A DNA stretch of 64,000 nucleotides from Longimicrobiales bacterium (GTDB lineage Bacteria; Gemmatimonadota; Gemmatimonadetes; Longimicrobiales; Gaopeijiaceae). Below are positions 881 to 51,815 of the stretch, piece by piece. Below the pieces are notes generated by a model, which saw only the letters and a program-made list of their open reading frames with translations, was not told the DNA's origin and searched no databases. Made by a program: the position numbers and the translations under genes. The stretch's first letter is position 1. Every line of letters begins with the position of its first letter. The DNA lies in the NCBI GenBank assembly GCA_965219445.1, contig CBDCNQ010000002.1, forward strand, positions 416,001-480,000, read 5' to 3'.

Positions 881-1041
881 GAGCTAGGATCAAAGGCATC
901 ATAGGGGCATGGCGACGGCTACCGGTACCGATCAGCAGCTAAGCAGCCCGAAGACGAAGAGGCGTTCTCCTCCGGGAACGGGTGCGCGTTCATCATTGTT
1001 CGCGCAAGGAAGCAACCCACCTATCCAAGAGGAGAACGCCG

Positions 1042-2097
1042 ATGGAGAGATATATCGGACTCGACGCACACGCGTCGAGCTGCACGCTGGGGATTGTAGG
1101 CCCCAGCGGCAAGCGCTTGGGCTCGCAGGTGGTGGAAACGAACGCGCGGGCGCTGATCGAGGTGCTGCGAGGGATTCCGAGGAACCGGCACTTGTGCCTG
1201 GAAGAAGGGACGCTGTCGGGGTGGCTGTACGAGGTGCTGGAGCCGCACGTGGAGGAGCTAACGGTGGCGGGGGTCGGCAAGAGCCGGGGCCCGAAGACCG
1301 ACAAGCTGGACGCGTTTGCCCTGGCGGAGAAGCTGCGGATCGGATCACTGGAGACGAGGGTCTACAAGAACCGGGGCCAGTTCAGGCGGCTGGGGGAACG
1401 GGCGAAGAGCTACGACTTCCTGGTCGGCGACACGGTGCGGGTGAAGAACCGGCTCAAGAGCGTGCTGCGCTCGAGAGGAGTGGCCTACGGCGCGGGGCGC
1501 TCGGTCTACTTGAAGCGCGACCGGGAGGAGTGGTTGGCCAAGCTGCCGGAAGCGAGCAGGACGACGGCCGGGTTGCTGTACGAGGAGCACGACGCACTCG
1601 TGGCATTGAGGGCGAAGGCCGAGAAGGCGTTGCTGGCGGAAGCACGCAAGCATCGAGAGTGGCATGTGCTGAAGACGTGCCCGGGTCTGGGTCCGATCCG
1701 GACGGCGGAGCTCCTGCCGGTGGTGGTGACGCCGTACCGGTTCCAGAGCCGGAGCAGATTCTGGGCGTACTGCGGACTGGGCGTGGTGATGCGGAGCTCG
1801 TCGGACTGGGTGCGGGGTCCGGGTGGGCGGTGGGTAAGGGAACCGGTACAGCAGACGCGGGGGCTGAATCGGAACTTCAACCACACGCTGAAGCGTGTGT
1901 TCAAGGGCGCAGCGACGACGGTGATCGGTCGGGCCGAAAACGAACCCTTGTACCGCCACTACGAGCGACTCCTGGAGGGGGGCACGAAGCCGAATCTGGC
2001 GAAGCTGACGATCGCGCGTCAGCTCGCCTCGATCGTGCTAGCGGTGTGGCGCACGGGCGAAGCGTACGACCCCAAGAGACTGGAAGCGACGGAGTAA
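1042..2097 (+). CDS. IS110-family DEDD recombinase/transposase
   Basis: YIGLD, LEEG, KTDKLDA (DEDD RuvC-like); CPGLGP and GLGVVMRSSS in the C-terminal domain; RBS GAGGAG before ATG 1042. Confidence 0.93.
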   Translation: MERYIGLDAHASSCTLGIVGPSGKRLGSQVVETNARALIEVLRGIPRNRHLCLEEGTLSGWLYEVLEPHVEELTVAGVGKSRGPKTDKLDAFALAEKLRIGSLETRVYKNRGQFRRLGERAKSYDFLVGDTVRVKNRLKSVLRSRGVAYGAGRSVYLKRDREEWLAKLPEASRTTAGLLYEEHDALVALRAKAEKALLAEARKHREWHVLKTCPGLGPIRTAELLPVVVTPYRFQSRSRFWAYCGLGVVMRSSSDWVRGPGGRWVREPVQQTRGLNRNFNHTLKRVFKGAATTVIGRAENEPLYRHYERLLEGGTKPNLAKLTIARQLASIVLAVWRTGEAYDPKRLEATE

Positions 2098-2164
2098 ACC
2101 GGCCTGGGATCGGCGAGCGTGGGGTCGAAAGCGGTCACAACATGGGGTCCGACGAAACGGAAGC

Positions 2165-2305
2165 GAACCGGTTACAGGGGACAGCATCCATACACACCGT
2201 GGGCCGGGGCAGAGAGCCCAAGCCCCCACTCAAAGGCTATGCACCCCTGGAAGAGCCGAACGAAGCGATGGGCCACAGAGTCCCAGATAGAAGGATGGTT
2301 CCCGC
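2165..2305 (+). ncRNA. Predicted seekRNA/bridge RNA of the IS1111-type element (boundaries approximate)
   Basis: Stem CAGGGG(2175-2180)/CCCCTG(2244-2249) encloses TACACACC (2191-2198) and TCAAAGG (2230-2236), which match the two strands of the target; ATAGAAGG (2287-2294) matches the donor end. Confidence 0.75.
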
Positions 2306-2464
2306 TCCAGAGCGGAGAACGCGACGGCTGTGAACGTCTTCCGGACTGCGATGCGGACCCTGCGAGCGCACCCCTCCCCACCCTGAGTCGTCGACCGGGC
2401 AATCCAAACCATGCGGACGCCGACGGTCAAAAAATGAGCCGACGGCGCGTGGGGAAGGTGCGTC

Positions 2465-2470
2465 TTGACC
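2465..2470 (+). promoter_or_regulatory. -35 box of the IS1111 circle-junction promoter
   Basis: On circularisation TTGACC is followed by exactly 17 nt (GCCAGCCCCATAGAAGG) and then CATCAT (897-902). Confidence 0.7.
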
Positions 2471-2583
2471 GCCAGCCCCATAGAAGGGTGTGTAAAAAAA
2501 GAGGCGACGTACCTTTCCGCTAGGTAGTAAGAAGTTAACCAGCGAATCCCGGGTGAGCGCCCGGGGGAAAGGAACGATGCCTC

Positions 2584-3828
2584 GTGAGGAAGAATATGGT
2601 GGGACCCGAGAGTGAGTCCAGCACGCCGACGTGGGAGTGCTTGGAAGCGCTGGTTCGTGAGAAGGCCCAGGAGATGGTCCAGCGGATTCTGGAGGAGGAA
2701 GTGACGGAGTTGCTCGGCCGGGAGAAGTCGGAGCGGAAGACGGTCGTAGACCCGGCGCCAGGCTACCGCAACGGCTACGGCAAGGCTCGGCGGCTGGCGA
2801 TGAGCTCGGGCACGATCATGCTCCGACGGCCCCGGGTTCGAGGCATTGAGGAGCGGTTCGAGAGTCGGGTGTTGCCGTTGTTCGCACGACGGACGAAGGA
2901 GGTGGGTGCTCTGCTTCCGGAGCTGTATCTGCACGGGCTGGCGGAGGGAGACTTCGAGCTGGCGATGCGGGGCCTGCTGGGCGAGGGGGCCCCGTTGTCG
3001 AAGTCTTCGATTTGGCGGCTGCGGGCGGGATGGACAAGGAAATTCGAGGAATGGTCGAAGCGCTCGCTGGCCGACCGTGAGGTCGTCTACGTCTGGGCGG
3101 ACGGGATCTACGTGAAGGCGGGGCTCGAGCGGGACAAGGCAGCGCTGCTGGTGGTTCTCGGTGCGATGCGAGATGGTACGAAGGAGGTGTTGGCCCTGAG
3201 ATCGGGCTACCGAGAGTCGGTCGAGTCCTGGTCCGAGGTGTTGCGGGATCTGAAGGCACGCGGCATCGAGGCGCCCCGGCTTTTGATGGCGGACGGCAAC
3301 GCGGCGATCTGGGGCGCAGTACGGCAGGTATGGCCTGAGGCGGGCGAGCAACGGTGCTGGAACCACAAGATGAGGAACGTGCTGGACCGGCTGCCTCAGC
3401 GGGAGCAGAGCGAGGCGAAGGACCTTCTCAGGACCGTGGTCTACGCACCGAGGCGGTCCGAGGCGCTGAAGGCCCGTGAGGCGTTCGCCAGGCGCTACAG
3501 ACCGTGGTATCCGAAGGCGGTGGATGTACTCGAGGACGACTGGGAGCGGATGGTGGCGTTCTACGACTTCCCCGAGGACCACTGGAAGCATCTACGCACG
3601 ACGAACGTGGTCGAGAGCCCCTTTGCCGCAGTACGGCTCAGGACAACGGCGGCGAAGCGCTTCAAGCGGGTCGAGAGCGCTACGGCGCTGATCTGGAAGC
3701 TGCTCTTGGTGGCGGAGAAGCGCTTCAGAAGGCTCGACGCTCCTCACCTCCTCAAGGACGTATTTGAAGGAAGAAAGTTCGAAGACGGAAAGCCCGTCTC
3801 AACCCAACAGCGGAAAAACGCCGCCTGA
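2584..3828 (+). CDS. IS256-family (Mutator-type DDE) transposase
   Basis: RNGYG, WADGIY, MADGN, QRCWNHK, LRTTNVVES motifs. Confidence 0.95.
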   Translation: MRKNMVGPESESSTPTWECLEALVREKAQEMVQRILEEEVTELLGREKSERKTVVDPAPGYRNGYGKARRLAMSSGTIMLRRPRVRGIEERFESRVLPLFARRTKEVGALLPELYLHGLAEGDFELAMRGLLGEGAPLSKSSIWRLRAGWTRKFEEWSKRSLADREVVYVWADGIYVKAGLERDKAALLVVLGAMRDGTKEVLALRSGYRESVESWSEVLRDLKARGIEAPRLLMADGNAAIWGAVRQVWPEAGEQRCWNHKMRNVLDRLPQREQSEAKDLLRTVVYAPRRSEALKAREAFARRYRPWYPKAVDVLEDDWERMVAFYDFPEDHWKHLRTTNVVESPFAAVRLRTTAAKRFKRVESATALIWKLLLVAEKRFRRLDAPHLLKDVFEGRKFEDGKPVSTQQRKNAA

Positions 3829-3858
3829 AACATTTACACACCTATTGACCCAACCTCC

Positions 3859-4360
3859 ACTGTTTGTCGCGGCCTGCTTCCTCGCCACATGCGAGGGCGA
3901 CGTCGGACCTACCGGACCAGCGGGGGCAGCGGGGCCAGCGGGGCCGACCGGGGACCCGGGAATTGAAAACTTCACCGCGGACCTGAACGAGGCGAATGTG
4001 ATGGTGCCTACCGGGAGCACCGCAACCGGCACCGCGAGCTTCTCCGTCGTCGGGCCAACTCTTCTGTACAGCATCGATGTCACGGGCCTCGCCGACGTGA
4101 CGGTGGTCCATATTCACGGTCCCGCCGCCGTGGGTGTCAATGCGGGCGTCATTCAGGACATCTGTAATGCCGGCGATGCGCCGCCGTGCAACACCACCAC
4201 GCCGCTTACCGGGGTCCTCGTGGCGGGCGCGGCCGCGCGCTCGAAGATCCCGTTCGATTCGCTGGTGGTTTTGATGCAGAACGGGAACGCCTACGTCAAC
4301 GTCCACACGACCGCAAACCCCGGAGGCGACATCCGAGGGCAGATCGCCACGGTTCCGTAA
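3859..4360 (+). pseudogene. CHRD-domain lipoprotein with short collagen-like Gly-X-Y tract; start of signal peptide removed by IS256
   Basis: HIHGP...AYVNVHT..NPGGDIRGQI is the CHRD signature; GPTGPAGAAGPAGPTGDPG tract; missing 5' part is at 51816-51852 (-). Confidence 0.85.
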
Positions 4361-48837: not shown

Positions 48838-48867
48838 GGAGGTTGGGTCAATAGGTGTGTAAATGTT

Positions 48868-50112
48868 TCAGGCGGCGTTTTTCCGCTGTTGGGTTGAGAC
48901 GGGCTTTCCGTCTTCGAACTTTCTTCCTTCAAATACGTCCTTGAGGAGGTGAGGAGCGTCGAGCCTTCTGAAGCGCTTCTCCGCCACCAAGAGCAGCTTC
49001 CAGATCAGCGCCGTAGCGCTCTCGACCCGCTTGAAGCGCTTCGCCGCCGTTGTCCTGAGCCGTACTGCGGCAAAGGGGCTCTCGACCACGTTCGTCGTGC
49101 GTAGATGCTTCCAGTGGTCCTCGGGGAAGTCGTAGAACGCCACCATCCGCTCCCAGTCGTCCTCGAGTACATCCACCGCCTTCGGATACCACGGTCTGTA
49201 GCGCCTGGCGAACGCCTCACGGGCCTTCAGCGCCTCGGACCGCCTCGGTGCGTAGACCACGGTCCTGAGAAGGTCCTTCGCCTCGCTCTGCTCCCGCTGA
49301 GGCAGCCGGTCCAGCACGTTCCTCATCTTGTGGTTCCAGCACCGTTGCTCGCCCGCCTCAGGCCATACCTGCCGTACTGCGCCCCAGATCGCCGCGTTGC
49401 CGTCCGCCATCAAAAGCCGGGGCGCCTCGATGCCGCGTGCCTTCAGATCCCGCAACACCTCGGACCAGGACTCGACCGACTCTCGGTAGCCCGATCTCAG
49501 GGCCAACACCTCCTTCGTACCATCTCGCATCGCACCGAGAACCACCAGCAGCGCTGCCTTGTCCCGCTCGAGCCCCGCCTTCACGTAGATCCCGTCCGCC
49601 CAGACGTAGACGACCTCACGGTCGGCCAGCGAGCGCTTCGACCATTCCTCGAATTTCCTTGTCCATCCCGCCCGCAGCCGCCAAATCGAAGACTTCGACA
49701 ACGGGGCCCCCTCGCCCAGCAGGCCCCGCATCGCCAGCTCGAAGTCTCCCTCCGCCAGCCCGTGCAGATACAGCTCCGGAAGCAGAGCACCCACCTCCTT
49801 CGTCCGTCGTGCGAACAACGGCAACACCCGACTCTCGAACCGCTCCTCAATGCCTCGAACCCGGGGCCGTCGGAGCATGATCGTGCCCGAGCTCATCGCC
49901 AGCCGCCGAGCCTTGCCGTAGCCGTTGCGGTAGCCTGGCGCCGGGTCTACGACCGTCTTCCGCTCCGACTTCTCCCGGCCGAGCAACTCCGTCACTTCCT
50001 CCTCCAGAATCCGCTGGACCATCTCCTGGGCCTTCTCACGAACCAGCGCTTCCAAGCACTCCCACGTCGGCGTGCTGGACTCACTCTCGGGTCCCACCAT
50101 ATTCTTCCTCAC
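48868..50112 (-). CDS. IS256-family transposase
   Basis: Protein identical to 2584-3828. Confidence 0.95.
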   Translation of the reverse strand: MRKNMVGPESESSTPTWECLEALVREKAQEMVQRILEEEVTELLGREKSERKTVVDPAPGYRNGYGKARRLAMSSGTIMLRRPRVRGIEERFESRVLPLFARRTKEVGALLPELYLHGLAEGDFELAMRGLLGEGAPLSKSSIWRLRAGWTRKFEEWSKRSLADREVVYVWADGIYVKAGLERDKAALLVVLGAMRDGTKEVLALRSGYRESVESWSEVLRDLKARGIEAPRLLMADGNAAIWGAVRQVWPEAGEQRCWNHKMRNVLDRLPQREQSEAKDLLRTVVYAPRRSEALKAREAFARRYRPWYPKAVDVLEDDWERMVAFYDFPEDHWKHLRTTNVVESPFAAVRLRTTAAKRFKRVESATALIWKLLLVAEKRFRRLDAPHLLKDVFEGRKFEDGKPVSTQQRKNAA

Positions 50113-50390
50113 GAGGCATCGTTCCTTTCCCCCGGGCGCTCACCCGGGATTCGCTGGTTAACTTCTTACTACCTAGCGGAAAGGTACGTCGCCTCTTTTT
50201 TTACACACCCTTCTATGGGGCTGGCGGTCAAGACGCACCTTCCCCACGCGCCGTCGGCTCATTTTTTGACCGTCGGCGTCCGCATGGTTTGGATTGCCCG
50301 GTCGACGACTCAGGGTGGGGAGGGGTGCGCTCGCAGGGTCCGCATCGCAGTCCGGAAGACGTTCACAGCCGTCGCGTTCTCCGCTCTGGA

Positions 50391-50531
50391 GCGGGAACCA
50401 TCCTTCTATCTGGGACTCTGTGGCCCATCGCTTCGTTCGGCTCTTCCAGGGGTGCATAGCCTTTGAGTGGGGGCTTGGGCTCTCTGCCCCGGCCCACGGT
50501 GTGTATGGATGCTGTCCCCTGTAACCGGTTC
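50391..50531 (-). ncRNA. Predicted seekRNA/bridge RNA (copy 2)
   Basis: Mirror of 2165-2305. Confidence 0.75.
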
Positions 50532-50598
50532 GCTTCCGTTTCGTCGGACCCCATGTTGTGACCGCTTTCGACCCCACGCTCGCCGATCCCAGGCCGGT

Positions 50599-51654
50599 TT
50601 ACTCCGTCGCTTCCAGTCTCTTGGGGTCGTACGCTTCGCCCGTGCGCCACACCGCTAGCACGATCGAGGCGAGCTGACGCGCGATCGTCAGCTTCGCCAG
50701 ATTCGGCTTCGTGCCCCCCTCCAGGAGTCGCTCGTAGTGGCGGTACAAGGGCTCGTCCTCGGCCCGACCGATCACCGTCGTCGCTGCGCCCTTGAACACA
50801 CGCTTCAGCGTGTGGTTGAAGTTCCGATTCAGCCCCCGCGTCTGCTGTACCGGTTCCCTTACCCACCGCCCACCCGGACCCCGCACCCAGTCCGACGAGC
50901 TCCGCATCACGACGCCCAGTCCGCAGTACGCCCAGAACCTGCTCCGGCTCTGGAACCGGTACGGCGTCACCACCACCGGCAGGAGCTCCGCCGTCCGGAT
51001 CGGACCCAGACCCGGGCACGTCTTCAGCACATGCCACTCTCGATGCTTGCGTGCTTCCGCCAGCAACGCCTTCTCGGCCTTCGCCCTCAATGCCACGAGT
51101 GCGTCGTGCTCCTCGTACAGCAACCCGGCCGTCGTCCTGCTCGCTTCCGGCAGCTTGGCCAACCACTCCTCCCGGTCGCGCTTTAAGTAGACCGAGCGCC
51201 CCGCGCCGTAGGCCACTCCTCTCGAGCGCAGCACGCTCTTGAGCCGGTTCTTCACCCGCACCGTGTCGCCGACCAAGAAGTCGTAGCTCTTCGCCCGTTC
51301 CCCCAGCCGCCTGAACTGGCCCCGGTTCTTGTAGACCGTCGTCTCCAGTGATCCGATCCGCAGCTTCTCCGCCAGGGCAAACGCGTCCAGCTTGTCGGTC
51401 TTCGGGCCCCGGCTCTTGCCGACCCCCGCCACCGTCAGCTCCTCCACGTGCGGCTTCAGCACCTCGTACAGCCACCCCGACAGCGTCCCTTCTTCCAGGC
51501 ACAAGTGCCGGTTCCTCGGAATCCCTCGCAGCACCTCGATCAGCGCCCGCGCGTTCGTTTCCACCACCTGCGAGCCCAAGCGCTTGCCGCTGGGGCCTAC
51601 AATCCCCAGCGTGCAGCTCGACGCGTGTGCGTCGAGTCCGATATATCTCTCCAT
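50599..51654 (-). CDS. IS110-family DEDD recombinase/transposase
   Basis: As copy 1 with three amino-acid differences (LEPH/LKPH, ETRV/ETTV, AENE/AEDE). Confidence 0.93.
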   Translation of the reverse strand: MERYIGLDAHASSCTLGIVGPSGKRLGSQVVETNARALIEVLRGIPRNRHLCLEEGTLSGWLYEVLKPHVEELTVAGVGKSRGPKTDKLDAFALAEKLRIGSLETTVYKNRGQFRRLGERAKSYDFLVGDTVRVKNRLKSVLRSRGVAYGAGRSVYLKRDREEWLAKLPEASRTTAGLLYEEHDALVALRAKAEKALLAEARKHREWHVLKTCPGLGPIRTAELLPVVVTPYRFQSRSRFWAYCGLGVVMRSSSDWVRGPGGRWVREPVQQTRGLNRNFNHTLKRVFKGAATTVIGRAEDEPLYRHYERLLEGGTKPNLAKLTIARQLASIVLAVWRTGEAYDPKRLEATE

Positions 51655-51815
51655 CGGCGTTCTCCTCTTGGATAGGTGGGTTGCTTCCTTGCGCGAACAA
51701 TGATGAACGCGCACCCGTTCCCGGAGGAGAACGCCTCTTCGTCTTCGGGCTGCTTAGCTGCTGATCGGTACCGGTAGCCGTCGCCATGCCCCTATGATGC
51801 CTTTGATCCTAGCTC

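Follow-up and report, generated by a model that had tools for sequence, protein, structure and literature searches.

A region lying 68-208 bp past the stop codon of a 351-aa open reading frame (ORF) very probably codes for a bispecific guide RNA that serves an IS110-family bridge recombinase, much as an earlier sequence-only reading of this DNA had proposed. The window, meaning the whole 64,000-nucleotide stretch that was analysed, is G000:C2:416001-480000. Within it the IS110-family element occupies 896-2486 (+; 1591 bp with one copy of the core counted), and its ends are established from the junctions of its copies and of its homologues. On the left it abuts the outer part of an IS256-family left terminal repeat (881-895, +), in which 890-893 form the left target and 894-895 the core AG. 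On the right follows the remainder of the IS256-family element (2487-3857, +), with the right target at 2487-2494, a transposase ORF at 2584-3828 that scores 295 bits with NF033543 (cut-off 150), and a right repeat ending at 3857. The left end of the IS110 element (896-914, +) contains GC at 896-897, the predicted -10 hexamer CATCAT at 897-902 and an imperfect sub-terminal repeat at 904-914. The right end (2465-2486, +) contains the predicted -35 hexamer TTGACC (2465-2470), the other sub-terminal repeat (2470-2479) and ATAGAAG (2480-2486). The sub-terminal repeats share 10 matches with a one-base gap and lie 8 and 7 bp from the ends. Non-coding DNA amounts to 389 bp downstream of the gene and 146 bp upstream. 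A second copy of the element (50210-51800, -; its RNA at 50380-50528) is likewise found in an IS256 left end, and genome G000 harbors 22 full copies. Relatives with 95-100% identical proteins come from records titled Longimicrobiales, and the best-matching sequencing run is labelled sponge metagenome; runs X19 and X20 match to a small extent. Directly left of the IS256::IS110 composite is a ParB-N domain ORF (437-862, -), and directly right a CHRD-domain ORF (3764-4360, +) whose frame begins inside the IS256 end; the former may be cut, and the latter truncated, by insertion or inversion.

The ORF (1042-2097, +) contains both Pfam domains expected of the family, PF01548 (39.3 bits, cut-off 29) and PF02371 (32.5 bits, cut-off 21.3), and scored 112.8 with NCBIfam NF033542, under the cut-off of 140. 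The catalytic residues of this DEDD/serine recombinase, D8, E54, D87, D90 and S253, show no change in any of the 36 aligned homologues and align with D11, E60, D102, D105 and S241 of IS621, as read by eye from the alignment. A search of the PDB with the recombinase as a single sequence gave no matches, and neither did a search of viral contigs. The predicted structure (pLDDT 84) found IS621 and ISCro4 as its best matches (8WT9, E 8.6e-14, about 19% identity). At least 3097 matches were obtained among 8000 scored, forming 369 clusters at E<=1e-30. The best matches from 72,556 plasmids reached 23-28% identity, with ISGdi15 the only named element among the 15 matches listed. By sequence, the clade is large and remote from plasmid-borne IS110s.

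Folding of the single sequence is unremarkable, with z-scores of -1.20 for 2098-2487, -0.98 for 2165-2305 and -2.07 for the target loop alone, and for this reason homologues were relied on for the RNA structure. The set comprised 77 genome loci (the best 80 of 96 matches), at least 120 metagenome stretches and 22 further loci. A pattern parser recovered 164 RNA rows in 220 sequences, of which 158 were used; 5 further rows were dropped (3 duplicates, 1 rearranged, 1 misparsed), leaving 95 distinct guide pairs, with one locus (L047) kept outside the left-flank test. The consensus fold was built from the 67 RNAs, out of 95, that possess a donor loop and an inner part of 26-29 nt. It has five helices in two loops with 96.1% of cells paired, against 31-58% in slid controls, and 12 of its 26 pairs are compensatory, having changed on both sides. 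None of 500 shuffles reached the observed stem covariation score, where pair shuffles ignore kinship. The folding check proposed in the sequence-only reading was borne out by the stems of the homologues and not by single-sequence folding.

The target-binding loop (2175-2249, +), drawn from this consensus fold and its pair counts, contains the outer stems CAGGGG/CCCCTG (2175-2180/2244-2249) and GCAT/ATGC (2184-2187/2239-2242) and an inner hairpin (2201-2225), all of which had been picked out beforehand and are family consensus helices. The donor-binding loop (2253-2301, +) was likewise placed from consensus fold and pair counts. Here the stem is not the GAAC/GTTC originally suggested, but GCCG/TGGT (2255-2258/2296-2299), extendable to GAGCCG/TGGTTC; the donor stems (helices 4 and 5) are 99% paired in the family. 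The window copy of the RNA has a one-base insertion (A2251), and a small hairpin past the donor loop in the single-sequence fold (2302-2315, +) is possibly the 3' part of the RNA. A covariance model built from the consensus (R1) finds at least 25 places in G000 (150 of 2078 candidates scored) and 14 of 14 test loci with protein identities of 39-66%. An Rfam search with the RNA region returned no matches. The contigs of one RNA run included a single contig over the element, at 1125-1410, and none over the guide RNA.

Two guides are located in the target loop. The 5' target guide ATACACACCG (2190-2199, +) includes TACACACC at 2191-2198, complementary to the right target at 2487-2494. The 3' target guide ACTCAAAG (2228-2237, +) carries the core at its end and then the handshake dinucleotide GC, and TCAAAGG lies within it at 2230-2236. 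In the donor loop, the right-end guide ATAGAAG (2287-2293), followed by the handshake GA (together 2287-2295, +), is identical to 2480-2486, which supports the view that this loop holds the right end of the element; ATAGAAGG is at 2287-2294 and GATG at 2267-2270. All four strings had been placed correctly, yet the last G of TCAAAGG and of ATAGAAGG is outside the core. When the downstream non-coding region minus its last 30 nt was subjected to 20,000 dinucleotide shuffles, with matches accepted on either strand and at any place, the two target matches coincided 3 times and the full set of three never. One could hold that such matches are chance or traces of local duplication, and that the protein picks the site, considering that the segments are short and the single-sequence folding scores weak. 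The shuffles and the covariation described next contradict this, as relatives with 79-84% identical proteins carry different guides and different matching flanks, and we regard this explanation as extremely improbable.

Comparison of the guides of homologues with their own flanks gave, for the 3' guide on the left, a match of 4.5 out of 6 non-core positions (n=34; null 2.45); for the 5' guide on the right, with the better of its two registers taken, it gave 6.62 matching bases (n=65; null 4.16). For each side none of 20,000 guide/flank permutations reached the observed match, although the permutation ignores kinship. Together with the exact matches in the window, this bears out the proposal that the two target-loop segments read the IS256 left end. 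Covariation persists when the window's own group is omitted and when unusual guides are taken by themselves (subsets of 23 and 14 pairs). Close relatives differ in their guides, and the flanks lie outside the element. The sequence-only reading had proposed that homologues with other targets be examined for unchanged loops; homologues with other flanks were found to carry other loop sequences, which favours a guide. Pairing of the 5' guide falls into two registers (31 and 15 of 65, a third register accounting for 2 and 17 being unclear), which the geometry of IS621 does not simply explain, and in the window this guide does not cover the core C (G2199). An added G on insertion was considered as the source of the second register and rejected, as register 0 is also seen where +1 is C or T (L087, L099). 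The guide pair seen most often in the family targets GGATAG and, behind it, a GAAAT[CT]CAA-like sequence, in several phyla and often near short palindromes (L010, L014, L092, L112 and many others).

The core had been given as AAGG, but junctions of homologues fix the crossover to two nucleotides, A[G/A/C]. In most homologues the left junction reads TAG where the donor has AAG, and the copies in a second genome (G002) have A at target +1 while the element still starts with G; both observations reject AAGG, which is common to both partners in the window element because the neighbours of the core happen to agree. Left junctions are target-derived up to the base 5' of GCATC. Right junctions keep donor sequence to the end of ATAGA; either partner can supply the last core base (L050 versus L024 and L037). 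The second-last core base is A in 34 of 34 left pairs and the last is G in 27, A in 5 and C in 2, always as in the guide. These variants, AG, AA and AC, are the reverse complements of CT, TT and GT, the cores accepted by IS621 in the accessible text of PMC11208158. With the window's group set aside, the dinucleotide 3' of the 3' target guide equals the first two bases of the element in 30 of 33 rows, including both GT cases, and the base 3' of the donor guide equals target +1 in 49 of 60 (G/G 45, C/C 4). Counted as handshake pairs, these give two before exchange and three after, a direction reported to favour insertion in the part of PMC13626964 that was available.

The donor loop changes along with the right end of the element, reading ATGGAAG, ATAGGAG, ATAGAAC or CTGGAAG in homologues. 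For the left end, GATG had been suggested with reservations; it varies while the end stays constant and does not track changed ends, so that claim did not survive. By comparison of sequences, AACGAAGC (2259-2266, +) fits better and is the probable, degenerate left-end guide: it matches the left end at 5 of 8 positions and tracks the changed left ends of L047 and L052 (6 and 7 of 8), the informative cases being few. This degeneracy, and the fact that donor positions vary little, would agree with a system in which the target loop alone guides as a short processed RNA, while the protein reads the ends through the sub-terminal repeats and the ATAGAAG match is kept for some other reason. In ISEc11 an 82-nt seekRNA alone supported movement, according to the portion of PMC11187229 consulted, and the target loop here is 75 nt. 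However, the change of the donor-loop sequence with the right end in several lineages, the base past the donor guide tracking target +1, and the retention of the donor stems all argue against it, and we consider a target loop acting alone unlikely.

A bispecific RNA, with both loops in use, would operate as follows, where expression, circle formation, binding, chemistry and the role of the handshake are drawn by analogy from work on IS621 and ISEc11. The element would excise as a circle, whose joined ends would form a promoter driving the recombinase and the RNA. The computed circle junction contains a predicted promoter, TTGACC and CATCAT separated by a 17-bp spacer, with 9 of 12 consensus bases; a promoter search of the linear region found none. 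The target loop would open TCAA-AG-GGTGTGTA in the IS256 left repeat with one guide per strand, and the donor loop would bind the circle junction. A recombinase tetramer (D8/E54/D87/D90 and S253) would then exchange strands across the 2-nt AG core, adding no bases, presumably assisted by handshake pairing of GC 2236-2237 with the first bases of the element (896-897) and of G2294 with target +1. Circle or empty-site joints were not present among the contigs of 4 sequencing runs, and contigs cannot show absence.

Read on the minus strand, the RNA has the order left target guide, right target guide plus core, handshake, left donor guide, right donor guide plus core, handshake. Once the element is read on that strand, IS621 has the same guide order, a CT core and two handshake pairs. 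Judged from these sequences, the 'reversed' guide order of IS1111-type elements may therefore be a strand flip of the IS621 layout, and if this is true an apparent mechanistic difference between IS110- and IS1111-type RNAs vanishes. Model R1 gave no match in the ISGdi15 region and at most a fragment in L066, so the strand-flip reading is not extendable to named IS1111 members.

As far as the accessible parts of PMC11208160 and PMC11208158 and the structures PDB 8WT6-9 and 9T56 describe them, IS621 and ISCro4 share with the element a RuvC-DEDD plus serine domain architecture, a two-loop RNA with the target loop first, a core of 2 nt in which one base never varies (CT on the minus strand), handshake dinucleotides and a predicted junction promoter. 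Unlike those systems, the RNA here is downstream of the gene and DNA is read on the opposite strand relative to the gene, the matched target is 14 nt in the window rather than 11 nt, the first guide uses two registers, and SSS replaces the SG motif at about 19% identity. The IS1111-type elements ISEc11, ISKpn4 and ISPa11, as presented in the sections of PMC11187229 seen, resemble it in the long downstream non-coding region, a protein of ~350 aa, the top-strand complement 5' of the bottom-strand match (here 2191-2198, then 2230-2235), the lack of target duplication and natural retargeting among relatives. In contrast to them, a clear donor loop is present here. The IS1111 sub-terminal repeats described there are near-perfect, 11-13 bp long and 7 and 3 bp from the ends, whereas those of the window element are short and imperfect; they fit the looser range of 7-17 bp found in the consulted part of PMC11208160. 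The motif GL-P----S(t)G of PMC11187229 is likewise absent from the protein, which has GLGVVMRSSSD. The fit with IS1111 that had been claimed for the element therefore holds for the downstream RNA and the guide order but not for the sub-terminal repeats or the motif, and because these two features fail we do not file it as IS1111 proper despite its IS1111-type layout.

Homing of IS110/IS1111 elements on another mobile element, as seen here, has precedents in the material available to us: IS4321/IS5075 use Tn21 repeats, IS1383 uses IS1384 repeats and ISEc21 an IS3-family transposase gene, while the target here is an IS256-family left repeat. Downstream RNAs, this guide order and natural retargeting have also been described in that literature. 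A bridge RNA is predicted in 93% of IS1111s in the accessible text of PMC11208160; a natural programmable recombinase like this one is what one expects in the family. In Supplementary Table 1 of the same paper, as far as it could be viewed, row 926 (also rows 578-581 and 925) is an IS110 cluster whose domain sequences are nearly the same by eye, and row 926 has no ISfinder name; five DNA or protein motifs of the element are absent from the searchable supplementary files (6 of 7). The available part of bioRxiv 2026.10.21.760802 models 32,190 bridge RNAs and may already include the family. The IS256 target, the escape pattern described below and the strand-flip reading were not found in the accessible parts of PMC11187229, PMC11208160, PMC11208158, PMC13626964, PMC13604230, bioRxiv 2025.05.14.653916 and bioRxiv 2026.10.21.760802 or in literature listings, in which few subscription papers are covered. 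The kind of system is thus known, and no characterisation of this clade was found in the literature searched. The element is a fully specified candidate programmable recombinase, with a 351-aa protein, an RNA of about 145 nt, ends, core and a 14-nt target, from a clade far from characterised ones (<=28% identity among the plasmid matches listed from 72,556 plasmids). Its family offers natural rules in the form of 95 guide pairs, tolerated cores, two registers and single changes that leave sites empty.

Of 25 left-end matches in G000, 23 are located behind the outer 15 bp of the IS256 left repeat, which repeat the sequence of 881-895 with minor variants, one is at an unrelated site (C2:336726) that agrees with the 3' guide over 8 nt, and the last is a diverged remnant. 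Of the 24 true right ends, 21 continue into an IS256 body. The element splits the left repeat in 23 of the 28 IS256 left ends found in G000, which lengthens the repeats where rearrangements occur; 5 are empty and there is no intact empty site. Each of the 5 empty ends has a substitution or one-base indel inside the 14-nt target, and 3 of the 5 variants can be read as imprecise joins of the left flank to the right end of the element. A Fisher test of occupancy was set aside because the copies are not independent. All 29 IS256 right repeats in G000 are free, and as had been anticipated they are spared because of a mismatch to the guide: they differ from the 14-nt target at exactly two core bases. 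Two congeneric genomes out of 41 searched retain intact empty sites, which also appear as loose ends in sequencing runs X4 and X23. At these sites the two flanks are joined at one core copy, and insertion therefore adds no base. From such sequence data, high copy number and target saturation suggest past activity.

Other genomes provide natural controls. Of the 6 copies in G002, 5 occupy IS256 left ends, and 10 of 10 empty ends there are core-changed (8 AT, 2 TA). G005 has 6 filled ends and 5 empty ones, of which 3 are changed and 2 intact over the 14 nt, a point against the guided-insertion account given the 6 copies present. The single copy in G001 has changed guides, and 7 of 8 IS256 left ends there are intact and empty; this copy has an IS256 right repeat at its left junction and an unrelated sequence at its other flank, and is one imperfect case. 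In G410 a single diverged match to the left end was found, beside 2 empty ends that are intact. In genomes that have the left-end guide, 2 of 20 empty IS256 left ends are thus intact, against 9 of 10 in genomes that lack it, with a search pattern that allowed one mismatch and missed more diverged ends. Selection for immune IS256 ends is one reading of this pattern; the alternative is that unusable sites simply survived, and one of the variants also occurs in G001.

Nearly the same guides are present in L116, whose protein is 68% identical and which is inserted at the same base of an IS256 with 74% protein identity, while L182 (75% over a fragment) has similar guides and no flanks. On a tree of 27 proteins (one per guide pair, >=230 aa, >=58% identity, plus 3 outgroups) the guide label needs two changes, and a single clade is rejected (p-AU 3.6e-49). 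The window and L116 have 9 of 10 and 6 of 8 guide bases in common, and 16 of 22, 19 of 28 and 19 of 23 scaffold bases, a scaffold likeness no higher than with other relatives. Scaffolds track their own lineages, and this comparison gave no support for a swap of the whole target loop between the two. Possible origins of the same guide in two transposase lineages, the second represented by one full locus, are rewriting on independent occasions, an ancient swap of the loop, or repeated loss of an ancestral guide. This double origin bears on how such elements gain new guides. We put forward tentatively, while leaning against it, an arms race at the RNA level. The guide pair would have been written independently into two diverged lineages (68% identical), guides would be rewritable wholesale onto a chosen target, and IS256 would answer with immune ends such as the core-changed variant with 8 copies in G002; in the same tentative view, the 'reversed' IS1111-type order would be the IS621 mechanism on the other strand.

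The 22 copies in G000 combine 29 shared variants in mosaic fashion, with just 2 private changes and no difference inside the guides, and 246 of 406 site pairs fail the four-gamete test, which points to strong gene conversion or recombination between copies. Across the genome, 11 of the 18 composites are without a matching target duplication of their own and 10 cross-matches are seen, reflecting either many rearrangements at IS256::IS110 repeats or misassembly. Mosaic copies and missing duplications mean that recombination among copies is common, and it could be argued that copies spread as a composite IS256::IS110 unit or through gene conversion, the site being inherited and not chosen each time. 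Such spread may account for part of the copy number. However, it leaves the guide matches and their covariation unexplained, copies outside IS256 still match their guides (C2:336726; L214), the same site is used in IS256 variants of 74-88% protein identity, and G000 has no intact empty sites. As a full account it is very unlikely, and guided insertion into the IS256 left end is preferred.

Several structural variants were observed alongside these copies. The two inverted composites of the window, at 881-3857 and 48839-51815, have exchanged their 8-9 bp target duplications, which by sequence suggests that the roughly 45 kb separating them has been inverted. Tandem repeats of the 3' half of the element, including the RNA, are found at G000:C5:1612738 and at L005:3556-4800, the latter with two extra copies. 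In these the right end is joined to an internal AG or AAG of the transposase gene, which looks like a recombinase-made join at the core. An extra AAG behind ATAGAAG recurs at the right junctions of L002, L103, L148 and L160, from different lineages, as an imprecise product. An orphan RNA remnant, mainly donor loop, is located at G000:C5:1023323-1023422, and an orphan left end with the GGATAG flank common in the family at G000:C2:661602; from their sequences, both appear to be traces of relatives carrying other guides.
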